Origin: Candidatus Aenigmatarchaeota archaeon
GTDB lineage: Archaea > Aenigmatarchaeota > Aenigmatarchaeia > QMZS01
NCBI GenBank assembly: GCA_030600555.1
Contig: JAUVLW010000001.1
Span: 6,411-70,410 of the forward strand
Direction: 5' to 3'
DNA: 64,000 nucleotides
The notes under the pieces were generated by a model. That model searched no databases and was not told the origin of the DNA. It was given only the letters and a program-made list of their open reading frames with translations. This document shows, one piece after another, positions 387 through 25,374 of this stretch (position 1 is its first letter; each line of letters opens with the position of its first letter). The translations under genes were made by a program, and so were the position numbers.

Positions 387-574
387 GCTTCAGTAGCTCA
401 GCAGGTAGAGCATCTGGCTGTTAACCAGGAGGTCGAAGGTTCGAGGCAACCCTTTTCAAGGTAATTGTTGAAAAAGGTCTGCACCCCAAAAATGCTCATC
501 TTTAGATGGCACCCCTTTTTGCATCGCAAAAAGAAGGACTTAATTGGGGTGAAATGAAAATCCTTCCTGAAGCG
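387..574 (+). tRNA. tRNA-Asn (anticodon GTT) with ~115 nt intron inside the T-loop
   Basis: Read directly from sequence: acceptor GCTTCAG / CTGAAGC plus discriminator G; D-arm GCTC-AGCAGGTA-GAGC; anticodon arm TCTGG-CTGTTAA-CCAGG; variable loop AGGTC; T-stem GAAGG (435-439) / CCTTC (562-566). The T-loop TTCGA|..|AT is interrupted by 445..559. The region is GC-rich in an AT-rich background. Exons: 387..444 and 560..574. Confidence 0.75.
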
Positions 575-622: not shown

Positions 623-877
623 TTATTTTTTCTTTGATTTTTTATCCCCGTCAATTTCTTTCTTTAATTTTACGTCTTTGAGTTCTTCTAGTTCCACCCA
701 CATTATCAACAATCCTGTTAAAATCAGAACTATTCCAACAGAGCCTGAGAGAAGCACTTTTAGACTAAATAAAGAGTCCACTAATCCAGCCATTTCAAAA
801 GAACTATGGAATACATACCAGGCAATCCCCGACAGGGTAATTAATACCCCAATTATTAGTTTTACTATCGTGTTCAT
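623..877 (-). CDS. hypothetical small membrane protein with Lys-rich C-terminus
   Basis: 84 aa ORF with two predicted TM helices and a charged KKEIDGDKKSKKK tail. Confidence 0.35.
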   Translation of the reverse strand: MNTIVKLIIGVLITLSGIAWYVFHSSFEMAGLVDSLFSLKVLLSGSVGIVLILTGLLIMWVELEELKDVKLKKEIDGDKKSKKK

Positions 878-916
878 ATATAATATAGGTATTAAATTAT
901 TTTGATTAGTTTTATA

Positions 917-1489
917 ATGGGATTTAGTAAATATTTGAGAGAAATCTGGAAAGCACCCAAGAAAAATGAGGTTTATAAAGAGAGATTAATAACTTATAGA
1001 AGAGAAAATGTTGTTGTTAAAATAGACAAACCAACCCGATTAGATCGGGCTAAAGCGTTAGGATATAAGGCAAAACAGGGATTTGTAGTTACAAGAGCGA
1101 AAATTAAGAAAGGAACCAGAGTGAGAACCAGAATAACAAAAGGAAGGAAACCATCAAATTTAGGTACAAGAATACCGGCAAAAAAGAGCAAACAAGTCAT
1201 AATTGAAGAAAGGGTTGCGAGAAAATTCCCAAATCTTGAGGTTTTAAATTCTTATTGGATTGGCGAAGACGGTAAAAGCACTTGGTTTGAAGTAATCTTA
1301 GTGGATAAAACTCATCCTCAAATAAGGAATGATAAAGATGTTAACTGGATGCTCGAAAGACAGCATAAAGGCAGAGTTTTCAGAGGTATGACTTCAGCTG
1401 CCAAAAAATCAAGAGGTTTAAGCCGTAAAGGAAATGGTGCTGAAAAGATAAGACCAAGTATCAGGTCAAATAAAACCCAGGGGAAATAA
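917..1489 (+). CDS. rpl15e: 50S ribosomal protein L15e
   Basis: [16 protein letters not shown].. N-terminus and the basic profile along the whole length are typical of archaeal L15e (~190 aa). The ORF-track start at 902 adds 5 residues, so the internal Met is preferred. Confidence 0.88.
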
Positions 1490-1553
1490 TTAATTTTTTA
1501 AAAAATAATTGGATTTTAGGTTATTTGCTGCGGTTTTATTCCAGAGAAATAAA

Positions 1554-2000
1554 CTATTTTTTATCAGTGCTTCCAAAACCCCCCCGACTATTTTCATCAA
1601 GCAAATCTTTATCATGAATTATATTTAAATCAGGCTTTTCAAATCTCAGGAACACAATTTGCCCTATTCTCTCGCCTTTTTCAATAATAGCTTCAGTTTC
1701 CCCAAAATTGTATAAATTTAGTTTTATTGAGTCTTCTTTTCCGCAGTAATCAAGGTCAATAATCCCCACAGAATTTAACATCATCAGGTTTTTCTTCACA
1801 GGGAGAGAACTTCTTACAAATAGAGAGACAAATATATTTTTATTGTTGAGTTTAACTATCATTCCCGTATCTACCACTTTGCTTGTCTTTGGGGAAATTT
1901 TTAGAGTTTCATTTGAGCATATATCATAACCCACAGAATTCGGTGTTTTGTAGCCAATATCATCAATTCCTTCAGGTACGTAAATTGTTCCTTCTTCCAT
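1554..2000 (-). CDS. dut: dUTPase / dCTP deaminase family protein
   Basis: GIIDLDYCGKEDSIKLNLYNFGETEAIIEKGERIGQIVF matches the dUTPase/dCTP deaminase beta-barrel motifs. The ORF-track N-terminus (to 2075) overlaps tRNA-Glu exons, so the start is moved to an internal Met (MEEGTIYV at 2000, or MLLIMEEG at 2012). Confidence 0.75.
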   Translation of the reverse strand: MEEGTIYVPEGIDDIGYKTPNSVGYDICSNETLKISPKTSKVVDTGMIVKLNNKNIFVSLFVRSSLPVKKNLMMLNSVGIIDLDYCGKEDSIKLNLYNFGETEAIIEKGERIGQIVFLRFEKPDLNIIHDKDLLDENSRGGFGSTDKK

Positions 2001-2011
2001 AATTAAAAGCA

Positions 2012-2244
2012 TGCTCCCGCCGGGATTCTCATATACCCTAAAATTACTTTTTGGGGTGCAGACCTTTTTCAACAATCACGCTGAAAAGGGTTGCTTTGAA
2101 CCCGGGTCACCGGCTGTCTCCATGTCATAGACTTTGCGTCTCATACCTTTCTTTATTAACCAATTTCTTGGTTCGGGTGTCGGCCTTTTTTTAAAGGCTG
2201 ACTTCGAAAGGCCGGGATCCTGGACCGAGCTAGACTACAGGAGC
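2012..2244 (-). tRNA. tRNA-Glu (anticodon TTC) with two introns: canonical 37/38 position (~89 nt) and T-loop (~69 nt)
   Basis: Minus-strand read: GCTCCTG-TA-GTCT-AGCTCGGTCCA-GGAT (classic tRNA-Glu D-arm); anticodon stem CCGGC/GCCGG with loop CTTTCG|A; variable TGAC; T-stem CCGGG/CCCGG; acceptor 3' CGGGAGC + A. Exons: 2244..2205, 2115..2096, 2026..2012. Introns: 2204..2116 and 2095..2027. Confidence 0.7.
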
Positions 2245-2360
2245 ATAAATATTTAATTATTAATTTTTTAAAAGGTGGGTAAACAGCTTTATTGAGTATA
2301 TTCAAATAATTTTATAGATTGCCAGACCTCTATATATTTTATCTGGCTGAGATACAGAAA

Positions 2361-3083
2361 TTAATCTATTAGAGAATCCAAATATTCTTTTTCAAGGAAA
2401 TGTAGTTTACCGGGGATTATAATAACACAGAGAAAGCAATCCTGATTGAGCAGGTTTTTTATTTTATCATATCTTAAAATTTGTTCACTGCTTCCTGCTT
2501 TGCAAAAAACAACAACTTCAGTTTCTTCTGAAAGAAGATTTTTTTTGAATTTATTTTCCAGCTCAAGCAATATTTTTAACCCTTCACCACAGGTCATAAG
2601 TTTTTCTTTTGTGATATCCAGAAGGAATAATGTGTGCGCATCCTGTTTAAGATTATCTTCAAGTAGATTATAAGGCGCTTCAGAATAATAATAGGATATT
2701 GTTGAGACTTTCCCAAATTTATAAATTTGCAATCCTGTTTCTCCGATTGCGGAAAATATAGAACTTGAATGTATTATTTTTGTTTCAACTCCGGATTTTT
2801 TTGCGTCAAGCAGAATTGAATTATGAGTTGTCGCAATCAGAGAATCTCCGGGAACCAACAAAGCAACATCTTTTTCTTTTGCGGTGTCCAGAATATTATT
2901 GATATTATTTTCTAAATCTTCCCTCTCCACCGTTTCTGCATCAATACCCAGACTTTCTAAATCCCCTTTCCATAAACTTGTGTATCTTTCGATGAGAACT
3001 TTATCGCACTTTTTTGCGGCTTCCAAACCTTTAATAGAAATATCTTTTTCATCCCAGAGACCAATACCAATTAAATATAACAT
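2361..3083 (-). CDS. dph5: diphthine synthase (Dph5)
   Basis: MLYLIGIGLWDEKDISIKGLEAAKKCDKVLIERYTS.. is a tetrapyrrole-methylase-fold diphthine synthase signature, ~240 aa. The start is moved to an internal Met to avoid overlap with the upstream gene. Confidence 0.85.
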   Translation of the reverse strand: MLYLIGIGLWDEKDISIKGLEAAKKCDKVLIERYTSLWKGDLESLGIDAETVEREDLENNINNILDTAKEKDVALLVPGDSLIATTHNSILLDAKKSGVETKIIHSSSIFSAIGETGLQIYKFGKVSTISYYYSEAPYNLLEDNLKQDAHTLFLLDITKEKLMTCGEGLKILLELENKFKKNLLSEETEVVVFCKAGSSEQILRYDKIKNLLNQDCFLCVIIIPGKLHFLEKEYLDSLID

Positions 3084-3084
3084 A

Positions 3085-4209
3085 TCAACACAAAATTTCA
3101 CCTTCTCCGATTACTATTTTAGGATGGGCTCCTAATGAAAAAGGGTCTTCTTTCCACACAATTAAAGACGCGAGTTTATTTTCTTTTATTTCTCCGATTT
3201 CTTTTGCACCAATAATTTCAGCATTCTGTTTGGTTATTATTGAGATGCATTCTGCTTTGCTGAGACCAAAGTATTTGAAGAATCTTAATTGCAAAAATAA
3301 ATTTCTTTGAAGGACTACAGGATGGTCGCTTATCAAACCATATTTTAAATTAGATTTTGCAAGAAGTCCTATATTTTTCCAACTTTCATTTTTTAATTCA
3401 ACTTTAGGCGGGAAGGAATCCACAGGACCATATACCACAGGGAATCCTGAATCTTTGATTATTTTAAATCCTCTTTCTGTGTTTATGTCGCATGCGTGAT
3501 TTATCACAATGTTTTTTAGTTTGAATTCTTTTGCTATTCTAATTATTGCAATTATATCATCTTCTTTATGAACATGAATCATTAATCTTTCTTTGTTTTC
3601 AATTATCCTAATTAAATGTTCAGTTAAATAACCAATTTCTTCGGGTTTCTTTTTTTTCTTTTCAATGAGTTTTTTTGCTTTTACCGCTTCCGATAATTTG
3701 CTTCTCAAAAGATATGCTGCCCCCATTCTTGTATAAGGTCTTGAGCCTTTCCATTCAGTTGTGCTTCTTGGGTTGTAACCAAAAGCCATCTTGATTCCAG
3801 TGTATTTCATAAATGCTTCTTCGGCGTTTTTTGCGTAATTTTTTATTAAGACGCATCGCCCTCCAATTATATTTCCGCTTCCAGGCATTATATTTGAGTA
3901 TAAAATTCCATGCTCAACAGATTCTGAAAATGCTTTGTCTTCAAGATAAATTGAATCCAAAGGGTCTGCAAAAAGGAAAGGTCCCATAGGGTCGTTAGCT
4001 TCATCTTCCTGATAAGGTTCGCCGCTTCTGCATAATCCAATATGGCAATGAGAATCCACAAATGCTGGTGTAACAATTCCTTCACCAATAATTTCGCATT
4101 TTGGTTTTGTTGCGGTAATTTTTTTAATCTTTTTATCAAATATAATATAAACATTTTCTTTTGTGTTTTTTGAACCATCATACAATAATTTCGCTTTTAC
4201 CGCTTTCAT
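3085..4209 (-). CDS. amidohydrolase-family metal-dependent hydrolase
   Basis: PAFVDSHCHIG (an HxH metal-binding motif) near the N-terminus, and a C-terminal Asp-containing segment of the TIM-barrel amidohydrolase superfamily. 374 aa. Confidence 0.65.
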   Translation of the reverse strand: MKAVKAKLLYDGSKNTKENVYIIFDKKIKKITATKPKCEIIGEGIVTPAFVDSHCHIGLCRSGEPYQEDEANDPMGPFLFADPLDSIYLEDKAFSESVEHGILYSNIMPGSGNIIGGRCVLIKNYAKNAEEAFMKYTGIKMAFGYNPRSTTEWKGSRPYTRMGAAYLLRSKLSEAVKAKKLIEKKKKKPEEIGYLTEHLIRIIENKERLMIHVHKEDDIIAIIRIAKEFKLKNIVINHACDINTERGFKIIKDSGFPVVYGPVDSFPPKVELKNESWKNIGLLAKSNLKYGLISDHPVVLQRNLFLQLRFFKYFGLSKAECISIITKQNAEIIGAKEIGEIKENKLASLIVWKEDPFSLGAHPKIVIGEGEILC

Positions 4210-4231
4210 AAGTAATATTGAAATTTAATAG

Positions 4232-4570
4232 TTATAATAATTTGAGGTCTTTAATTAATTCATCAATTTTTTTGTCTTCTGCAGGACCAATCCCGAGGCA
4301 GGTAATTGTTGCGCTTGGAAGTTGGGTTAACCCGGCATCAATTACTAGATAATTTGGCAGGTTTTTTTCAAATACTCTTTTTTGTAATTCTATCAGTTCC
4401 ATTTCATCTTTAACTTTCAGAACAATTTTTTTGGCTCCTTCTTTTTCCCAGATTTCTCTCAATTGTTTATCCGCTCTTTTATAGGAACCTATGCTTGCAT
4501 GAGCAACCTGAGCCGCAATTTTTCCTTTACCCATTTTTAGATTAGTTCTAACAATAATTACTTGTTTCAT
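4232..4570 (-). CDS. pth2: peptidyl-tRNA hydrolase, archaeal type (Pth2)
   Basis: MKQVIIVRTNLKMGKGKIAAQVAHASIGSY.. is a diagnostic Pth2 N-terminus. ~113 aa after trimming a 16 aa ORF-track extension. Confidence 0.85.
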   Translation of the reverse strand: MKQVIIVRTNLKMGKGKIAAQVAHASIGSYKRADKQLREIWEKEGAKKIVLKVKDEMELIELQKRVFEKNLPNYLVIDAGLTQLPSATITCLGIGPAEDKKIDELIKDLKLL

Positions 4571-5170
4571 ATATACATTCAAATTATAATTATGCTTAAG
4601 AAAACTAATGAAATGCATGAAATTTCAAACAAAAAACTCCCTAGATTTTTAGTTTATCTAATTTCATTTGTCGCATTTTTTGTTTCTTCACTCCTGTTAC
4701 TTTTCACATTGCCTTATATGATATTTGTTTCAGATTTATTAGGTTATGCAGCAATAATTATTTTTTCTGTAATACTTGGTTTATTGTTTAAGTTTCTTTT
4801 AGATAAAAGTGAATGTAAGAATCTGGATTATATTCTATTGCCTGTTATTCTTTCAACAATAAGCACTATTGTTTTTGGTTTTCTAAAATATATGGAATTG
4901 ATGTTTCAATTTATTAGCAATGCAGATCGGGTTTTTTCAGGATTGCCAAATTCATATTCTTCATTAGTAAATTTTCCAAGTACTGATTTGTTATTTTTCT
5001 TGTTAATGGTGTTGTTTAACTTAAGTTTTGTCTACAAATATCTACAGAATTCCGGTGATAAAAGATATATCTTTTTGTATATAATTCCCATAGTCTGTTA
5101 TTTTTTAATATCTTTTGCAGTTGGGGTCTTGTTTGGCTCTTCAATGAGTATGGGTTTAGCTCCAATATAA
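4562..5170 (+). CDS. hypothetical polytopic membrane protein
   Basis: 202 aa with 5-6 hydrophobic helices. No recognisable motif. Confidence 0.4.
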   Translation: MFHIYIQIIIMLKKTNEMHEISNKKLPRFLVYLISFVAFFVSSLLLLFTLPYMIFVSDLLGYAAIIIFSVILGLLFKFLLDKSECKNLDYILLPVILSTISTIVFGFLKYMELMFQFISNADRVFSGLPNSYSSLVNFPSTDLLFFLLMVLFNLSFVYKYLQNSGDKRYIFLYIIPIVCYFLISFAVGVLFGSSMSMGLAPI

Positions 5171-5203
5171 AATCTATTTGCCAGATTACAAAAAATATTC
5201 AGC

Positions 5204-5644
5204 TTATTTCTTAGGTGTTGCTATAATTCCGCCTAAACCCGCAGAGGCAATCTGATGGATAACCCCGGAAGTCATGTTTGCGACATCTTGTATTTCTCCA
5301 GCTGAGATATTTAAGGTATTTGGTTTTAGAATTTCAATTGAACTTGGACCATAAGAAATAGTTATAACCATAAGGGTTTTCAAATCCTGAACCATTGCTT
5401 CGGTTTCAACAATCTGCGAGTATGCAAATTCAATGCCTTTCATTGGTTTTTCAACCTTTTCTATTTTGCTGAAGTCTTTTTTATAGACTAAAGATGTTTT
5501 TATTTTCTCTAGTTTATCAATATGTTCTTTCAGGCTTTTCTCCACAATTTCTTTATTCATCCCAAGAACTTCAAATATAAGGTTAACTTTCATCCATTTT
5601 TTAGCTTCAAGCTCTTTCATTTTGCATTTTAGTTCTGCGTCCAT
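5204..5644 (-). CDS. hypothetical protein (N-terminal coiled coil)
   Basis: 146 aa ORF with clean codon structure. Family not recognised. Confidence 0.4.
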   Translation of the reverse strand: MDAELKCKMKELEAKKWMKVNLIFEVLGMNKEIVEKSLKEHIDKLEKIKTSLVYKKDFSKIEKVEKPMKGIEFAYSQIVETEAMVQDLKTLMVITISYGPSSIEILKPNTLNISAGEIQDVANMTSGVIHQIASAGLGGIIATPKK

Positions 5645-5729
5645 AATTAATTAAAAAATTTAAATGGGGTTAAAAATGTTCTTCAATTTGATTATATCCT
5701 TTTCTTGAGAATTCAGCTGTGGATATAGT

Positions 5730-6038
5730 CTATTTGTAAGGGTTTCTGTAGCTTATTTCCAGTCCTCCGCCAATAGTTCTTCTGGCTTTGGTGTAATAGT
5801 TTAATTCTGTGTACTCGCCTAATAATTGGTTTATTATCGCAGTTTTCAGCTTAAATTCCGGAACTTTTTCAAGGTCCTCAAGATTGATAAAATAAGGGCG
5901 TACCCCTGAGTGGTCTTCGGTTTCATCCCATCCATATCCAATATGAGGTTTTTTACCATGAACTCTTATTTCTTCTTCATCAGGGATAAATAAGATATTT
6001 TCTCCTATATGTATAATTCGGTTTTCAGGTGATTCCAT
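5730..6038 (-). CDS. hypothetical protein
   Basis: The ORF-track version (to 6167) runs through the 3' exon and intron of tRNA-Leu, so it is trimmed to the internal Met (MESPENRIIHIG..). Confidence 0.4.
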   Translation of the reverse strand: MESPENRIIHIGENILFIPDEEEIRVHGKKPHIGYGWDETEDHSGVRPYFINLEDLEKVPEFKLKTAIINQLLGEYTELNYYTKARRTIGGGLEISYRNPYK

Positions 6039-6061
6039 AAAAATACCTAAAAGTTTAAAAA

Positions 6062-6251
6062 TGCAGGAGGGGAGACTTCCGGTAAGATGTAATTTTAGTT
6101 TCTTTTGCTTAAGGTGTTTCTTTTCTAAAGACATTCGTCCTTTGGACGATGCATCGTTGCGAAGCAACTAATGAAATCTTATTCGAACTCCCGAACCGAC
6201 TAACAGACAGAGTCCTTAGCCCTGCGCCTTTGACCACTTGGCTACCCCTGC
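6062..6251 (-). tRNA. tRNA-Leu (class II; anticodon reads AAG) with ~110 nt intron in the T-loop
   Basis: Minus-strand read: GCAGGGG-TA-GCC-AAGTGGTCAAA-GGC-G-CAGGG-CTAAGGA-CTCTG, long variable arm TCTGTTAGTCGGTTC, T-stem GGGAG ... CTCCC, acceptor 3' CTCCTGC + A73. The T-loop TTCGA.. is interrupted by ~6077..6186. The A34 anticodon is unusual for archaea. Confidence 0.65.
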
Positions 6252-6402
6252 ATAATATTAAATAAAGTAAATTCTTAAGTGAATGTTATGGTTGATTATT
6301 TGTATAGTTTTGAAAATAATGAAATTAGGGTTTTTGATGAAAATACCCGTGTAAAATTAGTTAAAGAGTTCTGCGTTTGATAATCTGAATAAGTTCAGCT
6401 AA

Positions 6403-7593
6403 TTAACAAAAATCAAATATTCTTCTTTGGGTTAATAGTTTGCTTTTTTTATTGTATTCTTCAATAGGAAGTCTTAATTTTGCGTTTAAGAAATTGAACA
6501 GTTCATTTAAATTTGTAAATTTATCATAGTTTAGTTTGAAAGCATTTCTTATCCCTTCCCTGACTTCCCACACCCCAACAGGAATTTCATATCCTTCGTG
6601 AATTTCTCTTATCACAATTGCTCTTGCTTGCTTTTTCATTCTTAACAAACCCTCGGCAACAGCGAACCTTGCGGCGTAATAACCCCCGCTCTGTGAAATT
6701 GCGTATTTTTTCCTTCCTCCGCATCCTTCATGTTCTATAGTTACACTCGGTTCTTTTCCCTGAAGGTTCCATAAAGTACCCGGGAACCAGGATTCAAATT
6801 GTTCAAATTCCCAGTTTCCCGGAATCAGGATAATGTAATAATAGTTATCAAGATAATTGTTTGTGAATAAAAAATATTCATTAACAGAATCAAAGTCATT
6901 TATTTGTTTTATAAAATGTTTCCCTAACAAATCATCCATTGCTGTGATGCTCCATCTTGTTGGCACAATTTTCTTTTTTACCCCGAGAACCCCTGAACTC
7001 AGAATTTTTGAAATCTGTGAAACTTCAAATTTTGAGTTGTAGAATTCTATTGCGGCGTCATTTGCTTTCATTTCCCCGTCAATCAGACCATAAACTTTTT
7101 TTGTGATTTTAGGATTATCCACCAGTTTTATTTTATTTACTTCCCCGCTCGCTCCCATTGGCTGAGTGATTGTTGAGAATGATTGCAAGAATGAAGGTTT
7201 CTTTGAGAAATTGATTTCCAGGTCCACAGGTTTTATTGAAAGAGTTATGTCCTGCAACTCCTGAATATATCTGTCTTTTGTGAAAATATTTTTTTTCAAT
7301 TTACCCCTTACAAGAGAATATCTGTCTTTGACAATGCTGTTAAGATCCATACCGTACATTTTTTCAGGTGTATCTTGTCTTTCAAGATTGGACTCATTCA
7401 GTGAAATCATAGGTCCGACTAATAAATTAGGATATCCTTCATGACCAACAAAAACAGATTTTGGGGAAGGTCCAAACAAAGTTTCCTTGATTTTTGGGGT
7501 TGAGATTTTTTGGTAATATATTTTTGTCAGCAATGGGCATTTATCCCTCCCACACAATTTTCTTACTCCTTTGCAGATTAAACATAAGTTCAT
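6403..7593 (-). CDS. hypothetical protein with N-terminal Cys4 zinc-ribbon motif (possibly Nre-family DNA-repair-associated protein)
   Basis: N-terminus CLICKGVRKLCGRDKCP is a CxxC..C..C motif. ~396 aa. The Nre assignment is from memory only. Confidence 0.35.
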   Translation of the reverse strand: MNLCLICKGVRKLCGRDKCPLLTKIYYQKISTPKIKETLFGPSPKSVFVGHEGYPNLLVGPMISLNESNLERQDTPEKMYGMDLNSIVKDRYSLVRGKLKKNIFTKDRYIQELQDITLSIKPVDLEINFSKKPSFLQSFSTITQPMGASGEVNKIKLVDNPKITKKVYGLIDGEMKANDAAIEFYNSKFEVSQISKILSSGVLGVKKKIVPTRWSITAMDDLLGKHFIKQINDFDSVNEYFLFTNNYLDNYYYIILIPGNWEFEQFESWFPGTLWNLQGKEPSVTIEHEGCGGRKKYAISQSGGYYAARFAVAEGLLRMKKQARAIVIREIHEGYEIPVGVWEVREGIRNAFKLNYDKFTNLNELFNFLNAKLRLPIEEYNKKSKLLTQRRIFDFC

Positions 7594-7655
7594 AAATTTT
7601 TACTGATATAAATTAAACAAATGGTATTTGTTTTTAGGTTATAAGAGAAATTTAT

Positions 7656-8678
7656 TTAAGCATAACCCGTATAATCATTTTTAGGAACATTTATTTTTTG
7701 AGGTAAAAGGTTATTTTCATTTAAATATAAATCCGGGTCATTTAGAAAACCCAATCCAATACCATAATAATCTGAACCAGGTAAGATTTTTATCTTGTCG
7801 CCTTTTTTCAGAAATATCGCAACTTTGTAGGGATTAACTACAAGGGTAGATTCATCTAAAGGCTGGGTTGGTTGCACATCAAAATACACAGCTTCTGATT
7901 GATAACCTTTGTTCTTAAGAATATGTTCTGCTATTTCTAAAGAATCATATTGGACTTCTGCAATGGATTTATTGATTTCAGGCAATTCAGTTTCATTATT
8001 TTTAAGTTCCGCAATTTTATTTATTATTTGTGTGTCTTTTGGAGCGACGAAAGCGTATTTTAATTTATTATTGGGATTAGTTTCGTTAGTTGTATACACA
8101 AGGAATTTTTCAACACCTATAGGTATTGGAACTGGTATTGTTGGATGCAATGCCATCTTTTGACTTTCTATTATATTGGAAAATTCAAGTTTATTATAAT
8201 CTTCTTTATTAATTGAAATTTTGTCTAAAACTTTTATTTTTCTTAAAGAGTCAATATCTTTAAAATCAATATATTTCAGATATTCGCGTGTTTTTTTATC
8301 GGTTTTAAACAAACCTTTGTCTGCGTTTATTTCACTTTCTCCAACTAAAGCATATATGAGTCCCGCCACATTTTTTACAGGACTTAAAGAATTTTCTGAT
8401 AAATACAATGATGAAATAACATCATCTTTATATTTTGCCACTTCAAGTTTATTTATTTCTTCTCCAGCAGTCTCAAGAAAGGTTTTAATGCAACTATTGT
8501 TTTTGTTTGATTTATTGTATATTATTGAACCTAATTGCTGTAATTCGGTTTCTGTTCCAGGAATAATTGAGCTATAAACCGTTTTTTTTGTTAATAATGA
8601 TTTTGCGTTTCCGCTTAAAAAAATTGCATTATTTTCGGGGTCAAATCCAATTCTATCTATTTTTATTCTCTTTGACAT
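7656..8678 (-). CDS. hypothetical protein
   Basis: Long ORF with good coding structure. The start is trimmed to the Met after the upstream gene's stop (the ORF track extends to 8840, overlapping 8707..9930). Confidence 0.45.
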   Translation of the reverse strand: MSKRIKIDRIGFDPENNAIFLSGNAKSLLTKKTVYSSIIPGTETELQQLGSIIYNKSNKNNSCIKTFLETAGEEINKLEVAKYKDDVISSLYLSENSLSPVKNVAGLIYALVGESEINADKGLFKTDKKTREYLKYIDFKDIDSLRKIKVLDKISINKEDYNKLEFSNIIESQKMALHPTIPVPIPIGVEKFLVYTTNETNPNNKLKYAFVAPKDTQIINKIAELKNNETELPEINKSIAEVQYDSLEIAEHILKNKGYQSEAVYFDVQPTQPLDESTLVVNPYKVAIFLKKGDKIKILPGSDYYGIGLGFLNDPDLYLNENNLLPQKINVPKNDYTGYA

Positions 8679-14554: not shown

Positions 14555-15599
14555 TTATAATGAATATTCCCAGATTCTTTTTTCTTTTGGAGTTCTTATG
14601 TTGGAGACTTCACCGCAAATATCTTTCAGAAATAATTTTTTTATCTTCTCCACATTATAATCAGGATAATTTCCCAAAATCCACATTAATTTAGTCATTG
14701 CGGTTTCGCTAATCATGTCATGACCTGGAATTGCTCCGGCATCCAAAGCCTTTTTGCCGCATTCATAAAGGTACATCCACGAGAAACCAATTGCGCACTG
14801 TGAAGACACAACAATTGGAATTCCTTTTTTCACAGCATTTTCTATTTCAGGCACAAGAGAATTTTCATCAATAGGAACATTACCCGCCCCAAAACCTTCC
14901 AAAATTATTCCTTTGTATCCAAGCTCTATTAAATTAGAGATTATTTTTGGATCGAATCCAGGCGTTATTTTTAGTACGCAGACTTTTTCCTCAAGTTTAT
15001 TAAAATATTTCAGTTCACTGTTTTCTTTTTTGAAATGTTCTCCTGTTAATCTAATATCATGTTCAATCACGCCCAATGGCAACATACCTATACTTTCAAA
15101 TGCTTCAAATTCCACTTCCCTGAATTTTTTGGTTCTGTTTCCTCTCAGAATCTTGCTGTTAAATACAATCATCACTTCGCATATATTTGTTTCTGTGGCA
15201 ATGCGAACTGAATCCAGAATATTTCTTTTTGAATCAGAACCCAGCATATGCGGAGGAACCTGTTAACACAATAGGTTTTGATAAATCCTGCAATAAGAAA
15301 GACAAGGCTGATGCGGTGTAATGCAGGGTATCAGTTCCATGAGTAATCACAAACCCATCATATTCAGAATAACTGTCTTTAATTGTTTTGGCGATTTCAA
15401 CCCAGTGTTTTGGCTGCATATTGGATGAGTCAATATTGAGTAAATCAATGGTATTAATATCCGCCAAATTCTTTATTTCAGGAATAAAATCCAGCAATTC
15501 AGTTTCATTGAATTCCCCGGGTCTCCAACTCCCGTTAACCATTTTGGCAGTAATTGTCCCTCCGGTTCCAATAAACAGAATTTTCTTCTTTTCCATCAT
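14555..15599 (-). pseudogene. ansA: L-asparaginase (type I) gene interrupted by a frameshift
   Basis: 15599..15234 encodes the N-domain (FIGTGGTITA, VITHGTDTL, PIVLTGS) and then hits a stop. The C-domain (SDSKRNILD..., GIILEGFGAGNVP) continues in a different frame from ~15247. Confidence 0.7.
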
Positions 15600-15735: not shown

Positions 15736-16893
15736 ATGTACCCTGAATTAAATATCGGAATAGTCGGTCATGTTGACCATGGAAAAACAACTTTAGTGGA
15801 AGCCCTCACAGGAAAATGGGTGGATACTTTTTCAGAGGAAAAAAAGAGGGGGATAACCATCAGGTTAGGATACTCTGATTTTTCAATTTACAAATGCGAA
15901 AAATGCGGGAGATCCACAACAAACAAAAAGTGCGTTCATTGTTTTTCTGACTGCAAACATGAAAAAATATTTTCTTTAATTGATGCTCCTGGACACGAAA
16001 GTTTGATTCCAATTGTTCTTACCGGAGCCGCTTTATTTAATGCCGCAATTCTTGTGATTGCCGCAAATGAAAAATGTCCCCAGCCGCAAACTCTTGAACA
16101 TTTAAGAGCTCTGGAAATAGGAGAAATAAAAAATATTATAATTGTTCAGAATAAAGTTGACCTTGTGTCAAAGGAAGAATCCATAAAAAATTATAATGAG
16201 ATTAAAGAATTGATTAAAGGAACAATTGCTGAGAACTCAAAGATAATTCCAACTTCAGTGCAACAGGGAGTTGGGATAGAATATTTATTGGACGAACTTC
16301 TGAAACTAGAAAAACCAAATTATCCGGAAGGAGATTTTTTATTCCTTGTCGCAAGATCTTTTGACGCAAATAAACCCGGGATAAAACCCGAGAATCTGGT
16401 GGGCGGCGTAATCGGCGGAAGCGTAATAAGAGGCAAATTAAAAGAGGGAGAAGAACTAATAATAAAACCGGTTTCCATAAAAGGAAATTATGTTGAACTT
16501 GGAACAAAAATAAAAAAAATAATGCGGGATGAACTTGAAGTTGATGAAGCGACCTGCGGAGGTCTTGTTGCTTTACAGACAAGTTTTGATCCTTCAATGG
16601 CAAAGTCAGATAGACTTGCGGGATGTCTTGCAGGAACAAAAAACATGCCTGAAATTCTTTATGAAATTGAAACCGATTATAATTTATTCAAAGGCTATGA
16701 ACTTAAAACCGGAGATACTTTATTGGTTTATTGCAGGAACAGCAGAAGCACAGGAAGTATATCTTCAATAAATGATAAGAAACTAAAATTAAATTTAAAA
16801 CTGCCAATCTGCGCTGAGAAAAGAGCAAAGGTGAGTTATTCAAAACTTGTTGATGGGAAATGGCATCTGATAGGTTGGGGGAGGATAAATTAG
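15736..16893 (+). CDS. eif2g: translation initiation factor aIF2 gamma subunit
   Basis: GHVDHGKTTL G1 motif, the zinc-ribbon insertion CEKCGR...CVHC, and NKVDL G4. 385 aa. Confidence 0.9.
   Translation: MYPELNIGIVGHVDHGKTTLVEALTGKWVDTFSEEKKRGITIRLGYSDFSIYKCEKCGRSTTNKKCVHCFSDCKHEKIFSLIDAPGHESLIPIVLTGAALFNAAILVIAANEKCPQPQTLEHLRALEIGEIKNIIIVQNKVDLVSKEESIKNYNEIKELIKGTIAENSKIIPTSVQQGVGIEYLLDELLKLEKPNYPEGDFLFLVARSFDANKPGIKPENLVGGVIGGSVIRGKLKEGEELIIKPVSIKGNYVELGTKIKKIMRDELEVDEATCGGLVALQTSFDPSMAKSDRLAGCLAGTKNMPEILYEIETDYNLFKGYELKTGDTLLVYCRNSRSTGSISSINDKKLKLNLKLPICAEKRAKVSYSKLVDGKWHLIGWGRIN
16826..16893 (+). repeat. direct repeat copy A (3' end of aIF2-gamma gene)
   Basis: ~85% identical to 18839..18907 (attcaaaacttgttga.gggaaatggcatctgatag.tt.ggg..ag.at.aatta). 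Confidence 0.6.
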
Positions 16894-16959
16894 GTTGGGA
16901 CTTTTGTTGTATTTAATATAATTTCCATTGTTAGGAAGAATTGAATAATCTTATTGGTT

Positions 16960-17712
16960 TTAATTTACTTGTTCATGAGATTTCAAATATTCCTCTATTT
17001 GTTTATTCGTTTCTTTTAGATCATCTAATTTAAGCAATTCTATAATTATCTTTTTTATTTTATTTAAATCCAATTTATTTAAAACATTTTTCCAATCAAG
17101 CTTGCTTTTGTTCAACCCCAAATGTCCTTTTTCCCCATCATATCCGCTTGCATGAATATAAATAACTCTTTTTCTTACTTTTCTTAAAAATTCTTCTAAA
17201 TCCATATTCAATGTTTTATTCATTACAGCCATCCCCAAGTGGCACAAATCCAAGTTAACTTTTAATTGAGGAAGTTTCTCCAAATTATATAAAACATTCT
17301 TGCCATTGAAATTCTCATTTACTTCATAAAGAAATTCTACTTTGTTTTTTTTCGAATATTTCAATAGTCCGGAAAGGAGTTTTATTTCTTGGGCTGTTAA
17401 TTTATTTTGTTTTAGATGAACAATCAGTTCTTTGCAACCTAAATACTTGCATGCAAGAATTTCTGCCTTCAAAATATTTATTTCCATTTCCTGCAGGGTC
17501 TTTTCTTTGTAGGTGAAGACCATCGTTGTTTGGGTGTGCATACTCAAATTTTTTCCTTTCAACTTTTGTTTAATTATATCTAAATTCTTTTTTTTAAAAC
17601 CAAAATTCTTATCACTGCTAATAATTTCTGAAACATCCATATCAATTTTTTTAGGATCTTCATAAAAAATATCCCAGGTTTTAAGTCCAATTTTTGTTTT
17701 TACTTTTTTCAT
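16960..17712 (-). CDS. xylose-isomerase-like TIM-barrel protein (sugar phosphate isomerase/epimerase family)
   Basis: 250 aa with CKELIVHL and IHASGYDG...GHLGL segments resembling AP-endonuclease-2/xylose-isomerase TIM barrels. Confidence 0.4.
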   Translation of the reverse strand: MKKVKTKIGLKTWDIFYEDPKKIDMDVSEIISSDKNFGFKKKNLDIIKQKLKGKNLSMHTQTTMVFTYKEKTLQEMEINILKAEILACKYLGCKELIVHLKQNKLTAQEIKLLSGLLKYSKKNKVEFLYEVNENFNGKNVLYNLEKLPQLKVNLDLCHLGMAVMNKTLNMDLEEFLRKVRKRVIYIHASGYDGEKGHLGLNKSKLDWKNVLNKLDLNKIKKIIIELLKLDDLKETNKQIEEYLKSHEQVN

Positions 17713-17766
17713 AATTAGTATTGTTCCTGTTTTATATATTGTTTGTTGTATTTTTTCCTGAAAATG

Positions 17767-18687
17767 TTATGGAAGATTTTTCCCCGATTCTTTACGGGTT
17801 GTTGCTTCCTTTTTTTTATCAAGCAAAGAATTAAATAAGATATTCGCTACGTTTTTTCCAGAGAGTTCTTTATACAATAAGATATTTGGGTTTATACTAA
17901 TGTCAATAGCGTAATATTCTCCTTCTTTTTCTATGAAATCAACTTCACAACATAAAGATCCAACTTCTTTAGCAACCCGTTTCCCAATTTCACACAGTTC
18001 ATCTGAAGGTGTGAGAAATGTTCTTCTTTGAGCTACATTGCTTCTATCTTCTCCTTCTTTTGGAGTTTCTTCTATACCTATTACTTCTTTACCAATTACA
18101 AGAAGTTTAGTGACTTTACCTTCTATTACTTCTTGTATATAAAAAGGCTTCGATGCGCTATGCATGCTATCTATTATTGCATTTGCTGTAGACGAGTTTT
18201 TTATTACCATAATGCCATTTCCGCCATGAATATCAGAGAGTTTAAAAACAATTTTGTCAAGTTCGCTTACAATATTTTTGCTTACTTCTGGCGACAGGGT
18301 CAAATAAGTCTTTGGGTATTTTACTTTTGCTCTATCAAATACCTTTGCTAAAAGTGCTCTATTGGACGAATAAAGAGCAGCCTTTGGTTCATGAGTTAAA
18401 ATTACTTTTTTGTTTTGCAGAATATTTGATACTAAGTAACTAAATGGAAATTTATCGCAGGGAACATGCAGGATACAAAGATTATAGTTTGCGATATTTT
18501 TATCTTTATACATTACTTTTTCATTTCCTTCTATATAAAGTTTTGGAAGTGTTACTAAAACACTATTTGATATTCCTTTAAATTTTTTAGATTCTTCATA
18601 AAGATAGATGGCTGATTTATCATCCTTATTGCTAATTATGCAAAGTTCCACATCATCATTTTTTAACTTATCTATACCTTTTATCAT
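17767..18687 (-). CDS. ATP-grasp family ligase (RimK/glutamate-ligase-like)
   Basis: IMVIKNSS...PFYIQEVIEG...EVDFIEKEGEYYAIDISINPN is the ATP-grasp fold pattern. Confidence 0.55.
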   Translation of the reverse strand: MIKGIDKLKNDDVELCIISNKDDKSAIYLYEESKKFKGISNSVLVTLPKLYIEGNEKVMYKDKNIANYNLCILHVPCDKFPFSYLVSNILQNKKVILTHEPKAALYSSNRALLAKVFDRAKVKYPKTYLTLSPEVSKNIVSELDKIVFKLSDIHGGNGIMVIKNSSTANAIIDSMHSASKPFYIQEVIEGKVTKLLVIGKEVIGIEETPKEGEDRSNVAQRRTFLTPSDELCEIGKRVAKEVGSLCCEVDFIEKEGEYYAIDISINPNILLYKELSGKNVANILFNSLLDKKKEATTRKESGKNLP

Positions 18688-18838
18688 ATAAGTTATTGGA
18701 TTTAAATAAGATATTCACTTCATTTTATATATTTGTGTATATAAATAAACATATAAAGTTATTTTTTGTTAAATAGAAAATTATTGGTTTTTTGGAATAT
18801 AATATACAACGGCTAAAATTCAGAATAATAATAAGAAT

Positions 18839-18907
18839 GCGAAAGTGAATATTCAAAACTTGTTGAAGGGAAATGGCATCTGATAGATTAGGGAAGAATT
18901 AATTAAA
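18839..18907 (+). repeat. direct repeat copy B (degenerate duplicate of aIF2-gamma 3' end)
   Basis: Out-of-frame remnant (..AKVNIQNLLKGNGI*) of the aIF2-gamma C-terminal coding sequence, immediately upstream of 18921. Confidence 0.6.
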
Positions 18908-18920
18908 TAAGTTATCAATT

Positions 18921-20084: not shown

Positions 20085-20843
20085 ATGAAACTTGAATCAC
20101 CAGAATTAATAGCAGATCTTTTATCAAAAGACCGGAGAATAGATACCCGGAAACTGAATGAAACAAGGAAAATAGAATATAAAGTTAATTTTGTGAAAAA
20201 AGCAGAGGGGAGTTGTTATCTTTCTATGGGAAATACAAAAGTTGTTGTTGGAATTAAATTTGGCACAATGACCCCTTACCCGGACTCACCTGATAAGGGA
20301 GGTTTAATGGTTACTATTAATTATGCGCCAATTATCTGGAAGGAATTGTCAGCAAACTCAGATATTGAGATATCTCGGGTGCTTGACAGGAGCATAAGAG
20401 AGAGCAAAATGCTGGATTTAAAAGAATTCTGCGTGACAGAAGGAGAAAAAGCATTTCAGGTGTTTATAGACTGCTATGTGATGAATTATGATGGAAATCT
20501 TCTTGAAGCTCTTAATTTGGCAACCGTGAAAGCTTTAATGAACATGAATATGCCAAAACTTGAAGAAAATGACAAAATTGGGATTTCAGACAAAAAAATT
20601 GAGTTAAAATCAAAACCTGTGCTTGTAATGGTATCAGGACTTAATGACAAATACCTGTTTGATTTGAACCAATCTGAGGAAGGTGGTGTTGATTTTTCAA
20701 TTTCAATTTCATATCTTGATGAAAACACAATCTGCGCAATGCAGAAAACAGGGATTAAAGGAATTCCTGTGAGTAAAATGGATGAAATTTTCAAAATCGG
20801 AGCAGAGAAACAGAAGGAATTGAGGAAGATTTTAGATGAATAA
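20085..20843 (+). CDS. rrp42: exosome complex RNase PH-like subunit (Rrp42-like)
   Basis: DRRIDTRKLNETRKIEY...AEGSCYLSMGNTKVVVGIK is an RNase PH ring-subunit pattern. 252 aa. Confidence 0.6.
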   Translation: MKLESPELIADLLSKDRRIDTRKLNETRKIEYKVNFVKKAEGSCYLSMGNTKVVVGIKFGTMTPYPDSPDKGGLMVTINYAPIIWKELSANSDIEISRVLDRSIRESKMLDLKEFCVTEGEKAFQVFIDCYVMNYDGNLLEALNLATVKALMNMNMPKLEENDKIGISDKKIELKSKPVLVMVSGLNDKYLFDLNQSEEGGVDFSISISYLDENTICAMQKTGIKGIPVSKMDEIFKIGAEKQKELRKILDE

Positions 20844-21662: not shown

Positions 21663-21714
21663 AAAATAAAATTAAAAATAAAGGACTATAAAAGTTTAAT
21701 TAGAACTAATTATA

Positions 21715-21858
21715 ATGGACACAAGAAAGAAAGAATTGCCTGCGCAGTGCAGACGGTGCAAATCAACAAGCGGAGTGATAACAAAATATAACCTGTATTA
21801 TTGCAGACATTGTTTCAGGGAAATTGCAACCAGAATCGGATTTAAGAAATACGATTAA
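21715..21858 (+). CDS. rps14: 30S ribosomal protein uS14 (type Z / S29e)
   Basis: 47 aa: ..CRRC..GVITKYNLYYCRHCFREIATRIGFKKYD. Not in the ORF track because it is under 60 aa. Confidence 0.8.
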   Translation: MDTRKKELPAQCRRCKSTSGVITKYNLYYCRHCFREIATRIGFKKYD

Positions 21859-21900
21859 TTATTGCGAATTTTTAGATTATATATAAAAGGCTAGTATATT

Positions 21901-23553: not shown

Positions 23554-25374
23554 ATGGATTCTATGACTTTAGATGAAGCTATAAATAAATTTAAGAAGTT
23601 TGATAATGATTTACCTGAAAAATTTAGAATCTCCAGGCAGGATATACTTAATGGGGATGTTAAAAAATTAATTAAAGCCTATCGAATATTGGCTATGAAA
23701 TATCACCCAGATAGGAATTCATTACCTGAAGCAGAAGAAAAATTTAAGGAAATGAAGTCAGTTTATGAATTTTTAATAGTGGAAGCTGAATATTACCAAG
23801 AGAAAAAAAAAGTAAGTGATCCAGAAGAAGCAAAAAGAGAAAAATCAAAAGAGAAAAAGACTTACGATGATCAGGATACTTTTGAAGAGAAAATTATTGA
23901 TTTGGAAAAACAACGAGAGCAGGGATCAGTCCAAAAGATAATTAATATGTTAACTGGAAAGTCAACACAAGGAGGCGCAATATCTAAAGGGGAACTCCAG
24001 AAAATAGTAAAAAGAATACGAAGAAAAAAAATCCCTTTGATTAAAGATGAAAAACAACGTTTTGAATATCAAAATAAATTATATTTAATAACAAAAATAT
24101 ATAAATTAATAAAAGGCGGCAGGTTTGATGAAAGTAAATCTTTGGAATGTTTTAATAGGTTAATGGATTTGGAAACCAGCATTGATAATGTTTTGATGGC
24201 TCAGGAATTGGAGGGGATAGAAAAATCACCAATGATAAGACCTGATTATGGAGTGACTTCCGTAATCAAAGAAAGAAAAACTGAAACAGAACCTTCGAAA
24301 GAACCGCTTCAACTTGGACCTGGACCAAAACCCGGAGAATATTCCCCAATTATAAGACCTGATTATACAGGAACTTCAAGACCAAAAGGTGAAGGACCTG
24401 TAATAACACCACCACCAAAAAAACCTCTCCAACTAGGTCCAGAAGTTTCTGAACCCGAACCAAACCCGGAACCCGAGCCAAAAACAAAAAAACAGAAAAC
24501 TAGAGGAACTGGAATTCCCAGAAATCTTTGGATACCTTTATTACAATTCTTCGCATTCATTCTCGGAATTTACCTGCTTTTATTTACTCCTTACTGGATT
24601 TTCGGTTTGCCTTTGGTGATTGCGGGTATTCTGCTTTTAATTGGGGTCCAAAGCGAGAGAGAAGGTTTAAGAGAACTTTTTGATTGGTTCCTGCATGATG
24701 ATACAGGGAATAAATGGGGGATGATTCTTGTGGTTGGAATAGGGAGTTTAATTGTATATTTTCAACTTGGTCCTATAATTGCTGCAATACCCCTTTTAGT
24801 AATATTTACCTATTTCGCGTTTGGAAAAAAAGTTGTTGGTGATGGACATTTTGTTGAATATGTTACTGGACTGAGCGGAGCAACGATTGTATTGTACTAT
24901 TTTTTTGGATATTATGTTGCTGCAATACCTCTTTTGTTGGTGATTATAGCCAAGATATTTGGGAGAACTGCGCTCGGTGAACATTTTACTGAATTTATAA
25001 TGACTGGGACAGGAATTGTTCTTTTCATTGGAGGCGCCCAGTATGCGGCATCTTATCTTTATGTTACTTTTTCATGGCCTTTATTGGTGGGATTTGGTCT
25101 TTTCAATGCAATGCTCTTGATAGCATTATGGTCGATGGAAGAAGGTGGTGGAAATGCAGAAAAAGATAAAGCCGAAACTGAAGAGGCTAGAGCAGCGACA
25201 AAATATTATGAAAGTAAGATGGATAGACAGGATAAAAATTTGGATGAATGGAAGGAAGGTGCTGAGAAAGAAAAATTAAAAACAGAGAAGGAAGTGGCTG
25301 AGGAGGAAAAAAAAGCCGCAAAAGCAAAGACAGATGCTGCAGAAGCGGAAGAAGAAGTTGCTAAAGAAAACTAA
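23554..25374 (+). CDS. membrane-anchored J-domain protein
   Basis: N-terminal J domain with LIKAYRILAMKYHPDRN (HPD motif). Then a K/E-rich segment, two ~38 aa Pro-rich tandem repeats, 8-9 TM helices and a K/E/A-rich C-tail. 606 aa. Confidence 0.65.
   Translation: MDSMTLDEAINKFKKFDNDLPEKFRISRQDILNGDVKKLIKAYRILAMKYHPDRNSLPEAEEKFKEMKSVYEFLIVEAEYYQEKKKVSDPEEAKREKSKEKKTYDDQDTFEEKIIDLEKQREQGSVQKIINMLTGKSTQGGAISKGELQKIVKRIRRKKIPLIKDEKQRFEYQNKLYLITKIYKLIKGGRFDESKSLECFNRLMDLETSIDNVLMAQELEGIEKSPMIRPDYGVTSVIKERKTETEPSKEPLQLGPGPKPGEYSPIIRPDYTGTSRPKGEGPVITPPPKKPLQLGPEVSEPEPNPEPEPKTKKQKTRGTGIPRNLWIPLLQFFAFILGIYLLLFTPYWIFGLPLVIAGILLLIGVQSEREGLRELFDWFLHDDTGNKWGMILVVGIGSLIVYFQLGPIIAAIPLLVIFTYFAFGKKVVGDGHFVEYVTGLSGATIVLYYFFGYYVAAIPLLLVIIAKIFGRTALGEHFTEFIMTGTGIVLFIGGAQYAASYLYVTFSWPLLVGFGLFNAMLLIALWSMEEGGGNAEKDKAETEEARAATKYYESKMDRQDKNLDEWKEGAEKEKLKTEKEVAEEEKKAAKAKTDAAEAEEEVAKEN

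Follow-up and report, generated by a model that had tools for sequence, protein, structure and literature searches.

INTRODUCTION

How does the end of a translation-factor gene come to stand twice in an archaeal genome, once in its own gene and once two genes farther downstream? We met this arrangement in the genome of a tiny symbiotic archaeon, Candidatus Aenigmatarchaeota (DPANN archaea), in a 64,000-nucleotide (nt) stretch of contig JAUVLW010000001.1 (positions 6,411 to 70,410; GC content, 33%), hereafter called the window. There, the last 23 codons of the aIF2-gamma gene are directly repeated beyond a block of two genes, which encode a xylose-isomerase-like TIM-barrel protein and an ATP-grasp ligase, and the second copy lies just before a geranylgeranyl reductase family gene (GGR). 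In DPANN archaea, whose genomes are tiny, gains and losses of genes are mostly inferred from gene trees; here, a physical trace of one such event is preserved.

An initial annotation, made from the letters of the window alone, read the arrangement as an integration that had replaced the 3' end of aIF2-gamma and left the displaced original behind, the two genes being an old or decayed insertion or a noncanonical cargo module. We compared the locus with those of relatives, which are denoted here by labels (e.g., L004, JAUWTN010000022; L164, JAIWDF010000078). The repeat is a genuine recombination scar, and nothing in our results shows that a mobile element placed its second copy.

RESULTS

The 3' end of aIF2-gamma is present twice.

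Self-BLAST of the 64-kb window returned three repeat pairs, one of which is the aIF2-gamma tail. Positions 16827-16892 pair with 18842-18905 over 66 nt (86.4% identity, one gap, E = 1.4e-12), in agreement with the duplication of about 68 nt and about 85% identity reported initially. Inside the repeat lie an ungapped core (16837-16892 versus 18850-18905; 56 nt, 89%) and identical runs of 17 and 19 nt. A 37-nt core pattern had exactly two matches in the window, the two copies themselves, with 0.00 expected from 100 shuffles. Registered by codon, copy 1 is the functional tail of aIF2-gamma and copy 2 is a noncoding one (Table 1). The stop-equivalent of copy 2 is TAA (18904-18906), and the GGR start codon (18921) follows 14 nt downstream. 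Furthermore, no plus-strand open reading frame (ORF) with a start codon covers copy 2, either in the window or in L004. Codon registration and the ORF check thus bore out the earlier description of a second copy that has lost 1 nt, is out of frame, and stands just upstream of the reductase gene.

A chimeric assembly or a binning join of two strains could also double a gene end. Indeed, metagenome-assembled genomes (MAGs) of this group mix strains, since L005 and L006, with two different aIF2-gamma genes, belong to one MAG, and the separate Logan assembly of SRR18936875 is interrupted in the TIM-barrel gene. This interruption (at 17538) is the sole break in the Logan contigs, however, and both junctions are found in them base for base. 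The same architecture is present in JAUWTN01 and JAIWDF01, two MAGs from a sister species that were each assembled independently and are 85 to 92% identical to the window gene by gene. Moreover, the two copies differ at about 14% of their positions, unlike the product of a collapsed or duplicated assembly. The probability that the repeat was made by assembly is negligible.

Close relatives carry empty and filled sites.

The initial annotation had asked whether aIF2-gamma is directly followed by the reductase gene in related genomes. This is the case in L005 and L010, which have a single tail and in which GGR starts 14 to 18 nt past the aIF2-gamma stop codon. In L006, L007, and L151 to L153, also with a single tail, a frameshifted GGR remnant comes right after aIF2-gamma. 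In the window, the sequence from copy 2 through the spacer into the start of GGR can be aligned without interruption to the corresponding end of aIF2-gamma, spacer, and GGR start in L005, L010, L006, and L007. At the other end, copy 1 and the sequence upstream of it align with aIF2-gamma, and the homology stops right after the stop codon of copy 1. The homology of copy 2 to aIF2-gamma begins at AATGC (18836, plus or minus about 6 nt). Compared with the empty sites, the window has in excess positions 16894-18835 and one repeat copy, together about 2,014 nt. Since copy 2 and the DNA downstream of it are collinear with the empty-site arrangement, including the spacer, we conclude that copy 2 is a displaced aIF2-gamma tail.

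The filled site is not confined to one species. L004 and L164, which represent a different species (aIF2-gamma DNA 90.8% identical to that of the window), have the same gene order and the same two junctions. Their copy 2 comprises 80 nt, is about 91% identical to their own copy 1, and is still in frame. Apart from the window, a second tail copy was detected only in L004, L164, and L165, using a DNA search of L005 to L010 and a fuzzy peptide search of approximately 95 loci. Thus, the part of the initial reading that concerned an insertion with a displaced 3' end was correct, inasmuch as the repeat flanks a real presence/absence polymorphism and copy 2 is the displaced tail; its other part, the cargo of an integrative element, found no support (see below).

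The lineages of the window, L004, L005, L010, and L006/L007 (clade 1) are about equidistant, with 84 to 91% DNA identity in SecF, SmMdr, and aIF2-gamma. Accordingly, the flanking genes did not single out the window and L004 as sisters.

We note two features of the single-tail loci. The GGR remnant is about 300 nt long (L006, 4196-4479; L007, 7375-7658; also in L151 to L153). The GGR of L010 is only 59% identical to that of the window, compared with about 93% in the flanks; synteny is lost past this gene, and Rrp42 is absent.

The interval between aIF2-gamma and Rrp42 is a hot spot.

To the right, the variable region is bordered by the Rrp42-like exosome subunit gene in every lineage with a contig reaching that far, except L010. 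The region from aIF2-gamma to Rrp42 is a hot spot, for which about ten different contents were counted, among them no gene at all, a 61-amino-acid (aa) ORF, GGR, a GGR pseudogene, a radical-SAM gene, and the window type. aIF2-gamma lies directly beside Rrp42 in L161 to L163, is separated from it by the 61-aa ORF in L155 and L156, and is followed by the radical-SAM gene in L158 to L160. The order is aIF2-gamma, PHP, ATP-grasp, Rrp42 in L008, and the same with an additional MNT/HEPN gene pair in L073 to L075. L009 has aIF2-gamma, DUF1861, p151, ATP-grasp, Rrp42, and L169 has GH130, ATP-grasp, Rrp42.

The more distant relatives L008, L009, L073 to L075, and L169 (aIF2-gamma 77 to 78% identical) carry the ATP-grasp gene in the same orientation as the window, divergent from an adjoining Rrp42, without GGR and without a second tail. 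The proteins of the window are 69 to 75% (ATP-grasp), 67 to 69% (Rrp42), and 77 to 78% (aIF2-gamma) identical to those of these relatives. Because the divergence of the ATP-grasp protein parallels that of the flanking Rrp42 and aIF2-gamma, its gene looks vertically inherited. The first 70 to 100 nt upstream of the ATP-grasp gene of the window align with the ATP-grasp/Rrp42 intergenic regions of L008, L009, and L073. With the gene at the same place in distant relatives, one may equally well say that the ATP-grasp gene is the older part and that a tail with GGR became attached downstream of it.

The ATP-grasp family is tiny. Only 14 homologues were found at E ≤ 1e-20 among 5.8 billion proteins, all on Aenigmatarchaeota-like contigs, and those at least 80% identical in the protein database were restricted to the window, L004, and one fragment. 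Since no other homologue of at least 80% identity exists among the 5.8 billion proteins, the gene is apparently absent from the empty-site lineages. L166 has it beside aIF5A instead of Rrp42.

Lineages with different arrangements of the locus share samples or bins: L005 and L006 are in one MAG, as mentioned above, and L154 and L075 both come from Ga0190303. Because of this co-occurrence, donor DNA is available.

The same gene end was replaced a second time.

L073 to L075 and L008 are near-identical strains (PHP proteins, 98% identity), and comparison of them revealed another event. Their aIF2-gamma genes differ at 5 of the first 1,139 nt and then at 10 of the last 19 nt, so that one protein ends in GFGKID and the other in GWGKVT. 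Compared with L008 (4894-4913), L073 has a 1.25-kb insert at the end of aIF2-gamma (7190-8466; likewise in L074 and L075). It contains the genes of an MNT nucleotidyltransferase (PF01909) and a HEPN protein (PF05168), a toxin-antitoxin-like pair, and its right junction, ATTGATTAG, is the final 9 nt of the old tail. The new 19-nt tail encodes a genuine aIF2-gamma ending, which shows that here, too, the incoming DNA carried a tail of its own. We conclude that on two occasions, in separate lineages, the DNA that came in supplied an aIF2-gamma tail and a part of the earlier tail stayed behind.

Allele signatures favor two parental loci.

Next to the positions at which the copies simply differ, some states are specific to one copy or to one allele. 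AAAGG is common to copy 1 of the window and of L004, and GCG is common to both copies 2. Since these copy-specific states are shared, the duplication predates the split of the window and L004/L164 species. At the 5' edge of the repeat, AAT (Asn) is found in both copies 2 and in the aIF2-gamma genes of L010, L006, and L007, while GGC (Gly) is found in copy 1 of L004 and in L005; the clade of 77 to 78% identity also encodes Gly. Because the copies carry different allele signatures, the two tails were probably different already when they were joined. A deletion between the repeats cannot move the extreme 5'-edge state of copy 2 into the gene; genomes with an Asn-type aIF2-gamma followed by GGR are therefore unlikely to be deletion derivatives. 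If so, the Asn-type tail with GGR would have existed before it was joined to a Gly-type aIF2-gamma followed by the TIM-barrel and ATP-grasp genes. As judged from few sites, the signatures favor a two-allele origin over an intragenomic duplication or a duplication of an attachment (att) site.

Based on these data, we favor the following account and hold it to be slightly better than an even bet: the repeat is a 3'-end displacement scar, left by recombination between two versions of the hypervariable locus with homology on one side and one illegitimate joint. The two versions would have existed in closely related Aenigmatarchaeota, (i) aIF2-gamma, TIM-barrel (minus strand), ATP-grasp (minus strand), Rrp42, the older type, and (ii) aIF2-gamma, GGR, Rrp42. 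DNA of one version may have entered a genome with the other, and the flanks, either aIF2-gamma or Rrp42, would have paired by homology. A single illegitimate joint at approximately 18830-18836 would then have connected the region upstream of the ATP-grasp gene to codon ~363 of the aIF2-gamma of the other allele. The predicted product has a complete aIF2-gamma that ends in copy 1, and in addition copy 2, the 23 terminal codons of the other allele, which remain linked to GGR through the original 14-nt spacer. The pathway could have been homology-facilitated illegitimate recombination; the same outcome is expected if a circular fragment was integrated through the tail by homologous recombination. 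A two-parent origin, with one version or the other as the recipient, is what we infer from these patterns. As to the parents, aIF2-gamma followed by GGR is seen in L005 and L010; the order aIF2-gamma, X, ATP-grasp, Rrp42 is seen only in the clade of 77 to 78% identity, with other genes as X. Once formed, direct repeats of 72 nt would permit later loss of the block by homologous recombination, and some of the empty sites may have arisen in this way; L005, which is of the Gly type, could be such a revertant.

Several observations weigh against this account. The allele-signature argument uses a handful of sites in 72 nt. No breakpoint was visible inside aIF2-gamma of the window or L004 in their sliding-window identity to six relatives, and none of the collections scanned yielded the predicted clade-1 parent (aIF2-gamma, TIM-barrel, ATP-grasp, Rrp42, no GGR). 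Given the equidistance of the clade-1 lineages, parsimony does not separate one gain from several deletions between repeats. The TIM-barrel gene has a low GC content and its next relatives lie in unrelated gene clusters, so it may be a recent import. Finally, a direct repeat that regenerates the 3' end of its target is exactly the trace expected of an integrase.

Hallmarks of a mobile element were not found in the block.

The initial annotation had stated that no integrase remains. Pfam analysis of both block genes, their neighbors, and 20 further ORFs of the window (170 to 410 aa) agreed with this, as it detected no integrase, transposase, or other element gene. At the block ends of the window, L004, and L073, terminal inverted repeats scored at or below the shuffle means (414 of 500 shuffles were at least as good). 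No relative of the TIM-barrel or the ATP-grasp protein and no match to the repeat core was found in IMG/VR, the plasmid and phage collections of GenBank not having been searched. A look at the GC and codon bias of the two genes had also been suggested. The codon-usage distances are inconspicuous (z = -0.27 for the TIM-barrel gene and +0.49 for the ATP-grasp gene), and codon usage thus does not appear foreign. Only the GC content of the TIM-barrel gene is low (27.1%, z = -1.9, the fourth lowest among 65 ORFs; ATP-grasp, z = -0.8).

These results led us to reject several candidates. A viral origin of the block was dismissed in view of the lack of IMG/VR matches to either protein or to the repeat core. 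For a transposon, insertion sequence, or casposon, neither terminal inverted repeats nor a transposase was found, and a target-site duplication would be much shorter than the 72-nt repeat. A tRNA gene was considered as the target, but ARAGORN found none in the window, and the sole tRNA-like sequence is 16 kb away.

That tRNA-like gene (387-492, plus strand; anticodon GTT, Asn) was missed by ARAGORN and is the only Rfam match at the gathering threshold in the 64 kb (RF00005, 38.7 bits, covering 8-63 of the 71 model positions). It is not followed by a matching 3' acceptor strand, and its T-arm continues into an element of 55 nt (438-492). This element recurs with 91% identity and in the same sense on the minus strand (2102-2048), past another T-arm-like sequence. 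The two regions, 387-492 (plus strand) and 2048-2140 (minus strand), could be related noncanonical tRNA introns or split tRNA halves.

Other origins of the repeat.

An integrative element could nevertheless have decayed. According to this explanation, a tyrosine recombinase inserted a plasmid- or virus-like element whose attP site resembled the aIF2-gamma tail, the two copies are attL and attR, and the integrase and the other element genes were later lost, with the TIM-barrel and ATP-grasp genes left as cargo. It would account for the direct repeats of about 72 nt at both sides of the block, for the regenerated target gene, and for the empty sites in L005, L010, L006, L007, and L151 to L153; the identical runs within the repeat could serve as a core, and the MNT/HEPN cassette struck the same gene end independently. 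However, neither element genes nor IMG/VR relatives were detected, and the ATP-grasp gene, which stands beside Rrp42 in distant relatives, shows species-like divergence. The breakpoints also differ, since in the window one copy ends right after the stop codon and the other begins at codon ~363, while the joint in L073 lies 19 nt before the stop. Moreover, the L073 event is a replacement with a loss of 10 nt and without duplication, and the two tails of the window resemble two chromosomal alleles. We therefore regard a decayed integrative element as unlikely and the cargo part of the initial reading as unsupported: no integrase, terminal inverted repeats, viral relatives (in IMG/VR), or clearly foreign codon usage were found.

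Still less probable is an entirely intragenomic origin, in which an ancestor with the order aIF2-gamma, GGR, TIM-barrel (minus strand), ATP-grasp (minus strand), Rrp42 underwent a tandem duplication from the tail onward, followed by deletions. Every component is indeed found at this locus in relatives, and odd states are shared by the two copies of one genome (GGA in L004, GGCAT in the window). Gene conversion explains the shared states equally well, though, and the copy-specific signatures match different alleles of other lineages. At least three events would be needed, starting from a gene order seen in no genome. The recurrence at one gene end could also be taken to mean that the aIF2-gamma 3' end is a dedicated insertion site in Aenigmatarchaeota, used repeatedly by small two-gene cassettes that have no integrase and bring a replacement tail via a mechanism acting in trans or one that is not recognized. 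We find this highly doubtful, and equally so the cassettes that it would imply, the TIM-barrel and ATP-grasp pair in the window lineage and the MNT and HEPN pair in L073 to L075. Thus, recombination between two versions of the locus is the explanation that we prefer.

Copy 2 is more conserved than the adjacent intergenic DNA.

Copy 2 of the window has 90.4% identity to that of L164, compared with 74% for the intergenic DNA on its left side and 58% for the 12 spacer nt that were scored (18909-18920). The conservation exceeds the intergenic rate (binomial P = 0.0004) and does not differ from the coding-level rate (P = 0.13). The states mentioned above that the two copies of one genome share (GGA, L004; GGCAT, window) point to gene conversion between them. 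Copy 2 may thus have been kept conserved by gene conversion or by expression signals of GGR that lie within it.

Under the latter explanation, which is compatible with any origin of the repeat, copy 2 was retained as a functional sequence, since the tail would hold the predicted promoter or start context of GGR, and GGR would be expressed only in those recombinants in which the tail stayed upstream of it. This is possible but rather doubtful. In its favor, besides the high identity, GGR starts 14 nt past the aIF2-gamma stop at empty sites, and therefore a GGR-proximal signal must lie within the tail there. Furthermore, the AATTATG context of the GGR start is typical of the genome, with T at position -1 in 81% of 52 ORFs. 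A positional scan upstream of the window genes, however, gave this context only and no sharp TATA-like signal, and no significant RNA structure was predicted in either repeat copy (z = -1.7, +1.05, and -0.8). Conservation at a coding-level rate would also result from gene conversion from copy 1, and other intergenic stretches span 65% to 94.5% identity. Scans for sigma-70 promoters and intrinsic terminators, whose models are inappropriate for archaea, found no more sites than in shuffles.

One of those stretches, the 238-nt region between the S11 gene and a 134-aa ORF (21663-21900), is 94.5% identical to L164, versus 84 to 93% in the flanking genes. It has no Rfam match.

Genes of the locus and other features of the window.

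The features of the locus are listed in Table 1. Pfam and NCBIfam analysis confirmed the initial assignment of the block genes, an isomerase-like TIM barrel and an ATP-grasp ligase, both on the strand opposite to aIF2-gamma.

Table 1. Coordinates of the repeat and the genes around it in the window
Feature	Position	Strand	Evidence or remark
aIF2-gamma, 385 aa, intact	15736-16893	+	Pfam GTP_EFTU 4.6e-32, eIF2_C 1.6e-13
Repeat copy 1, functional aIF2-gamma tail	16822-16893	+	Last 23 codons and TAG stop (AGA GCA AAG ... AAT TAG), registered by codon
Xylose-isomerase-like TIM barrel, 250 aa, convergent with aIF2-gamma	16960-17712	-	PF01261, 38.9 bits (cutoff, 31.1)
RimK/MptN-like ATP-grasp ligase, 306 aa	17767-18687	-	PF08443, 3.4e-12
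AT-rich divergent intergenic region	18688-18835		Right edge (~18830-18836) is the single nonhomologous joint
Repeat copy 2, displaced noncoding aIF2-gamma tail	18836-18906	+	1-nt deletion after 18849; TGG to TAG at 18889-18891
Geranylgeranyl reductase family gene (GGR), 360 aa	18921-20003	+	TIGR02032, 200.7 bits (cutoff, 158.8)
Rrp42-like exosome subunit, conserved right border of the variable locus	20085-20843	+	RNase_PH, RNase_PH_C

The aIF2-gamma protein is 91 to 95% identical to orthologues from Candidatus Aenigmatarchaeota MAGs. In addition to the matches listed, the TIM-barrel protein has a weak CbiR-like NCBIfam match under the cutoff, and the MptN and RimK NCBIfam matches of the ATP-grasp protein are far under theirs. 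A close homologue of the TIM-barrel gene is found only in L004/L164 (81%); the next ones are at most 67% identical and lie in unrelated gene clusters. Outside the L004 species, the nearest is in L167 (66%), at the end of a codirectional run of small genes (821-7176) for a Pol-beta nucleotidyltransferase, a zeta-toxin-like kinase, an acetyltransferase, a methyltransferase, and an AAA_18 kinase, a context quite unlike that in the window. In L168, a 2'-5' RNA ligase-like gene follows the homologue.

Upstream of the locus, an asparaginase-family gene (14555-15599, minus strand) is split by a frameshift into ORFs of 121 and 230 aa that overlap by 14 nt, and the Logan contig has the same split. The gene is intact (349 aa) in L164/L165, is fragmented across three frames in L005, and has largely been deleted from L006; decay seems to be under way in several lineages.

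The AATT-ATG start context is strong in the window (T at -1, 81%; T at -2, 73%; A at -3, 62%; 52 ATG-start ORFs), and no Shine-Dalgarno-like signal was seen at these starts. A pair of 33-nt inverted repeats (23828-23860 and 39476-39507) is 94% identical over a distance of 15.6 kb (self-BLAST E = 6.6e-06).

DISCUSSION

At this locus, the physical scar of a single gene-flux event has been preserved; sister lineages show both filled and empty sites, and the same gene end was struck independently once more. It provides a concrete and testable example of gene flux by recombination at a hot spot flanked by core genes in an uncultivated archaeal phylum. The interval between aIF2-gamma and Rrp42 is also a place to look for accessory genes, as it holds a toxin-antitoxin pair, a lipid reductase, and a lineage-specific ATP-grasp ligase. 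We add one more example, from a DPANN archaeon and a translation-factor gene, to a class of events already known, and no novel kind of mobile element is revealed by it.

The closest parallel is the displacement of C termini by homology-facilitated illegitimate recombination, which was proposed for Rhs loci and for the arrays of type VI secretion system (T6SS) effector and immunity genes in Vibrio cholerae (Kirchberger et al. 2017, PMC5361080; Jackson et al. 2009, cited there). Similar to the locus described here, an upstream homologous anchor is used, a new 3' end takes over, and the old end is shifted together with the downstream gene as an orphan, without a dedicated recombinase (PMC5361080). 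The displaced fragment in the window is still on its original downstream gene, the layout of copy 2, 14-nt spacer, and GGR being that of the empty-site genomes. In contrast to the Rhs and T6SS cases, however, the anchor is a housekeeping translation factor and not a polymorphic toxin, and its tail does not vary in function. Furthermore, a single displaced tail is found instead of an array, and in a DPANN archaeon, while the precedents are bacterial.

Archaeal elements are known to integrate into the 3'-distal part of protein-coding genes, where the stop region may be replaced by element sequence, and att sites of 29 to 69 bp are documented (2019, PMC6563490). Such integrated elements, and the islands at tRNA genes with a regenerated target and a displaced fragment (Islander, PMC4383910), resemble our locus in the direct repeats at both ends, the regenerated target, the empty sites, and the replaced stop region. 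In particular, the case of NitEve-E2, in which the incoming sequence replaces the region of the stop codon (PMC6563490), is similar to the L073 event. They differ from it in that no integrase or element genes and no viral or plasmid relatives were found here (searched in IMG/VR), and in that the 1.9-kb block consists of two genes, both of metabolic type, and one of them has long resided at the locus. A dedicated cassette site, as considered above, would be somewhat like an integron, but without a linked integrase.

Finally, hot spots of horizontal transfer between conserved core genes were described in bacteria from complete genomes (Oliveira et al. 2017, PMC5635113). Likewise, the short region here is enclosed by two core genes, aIF2-gamma and Rrp42, and has about ten contents, most of them devoid of a mobility gene, as would fit turnover through recombination in the flanks. 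Unlike in the bacterial studies, our evidence stems from contigs of MAGs in an archaeal phylum, and the scar of the recombination can still be seen.

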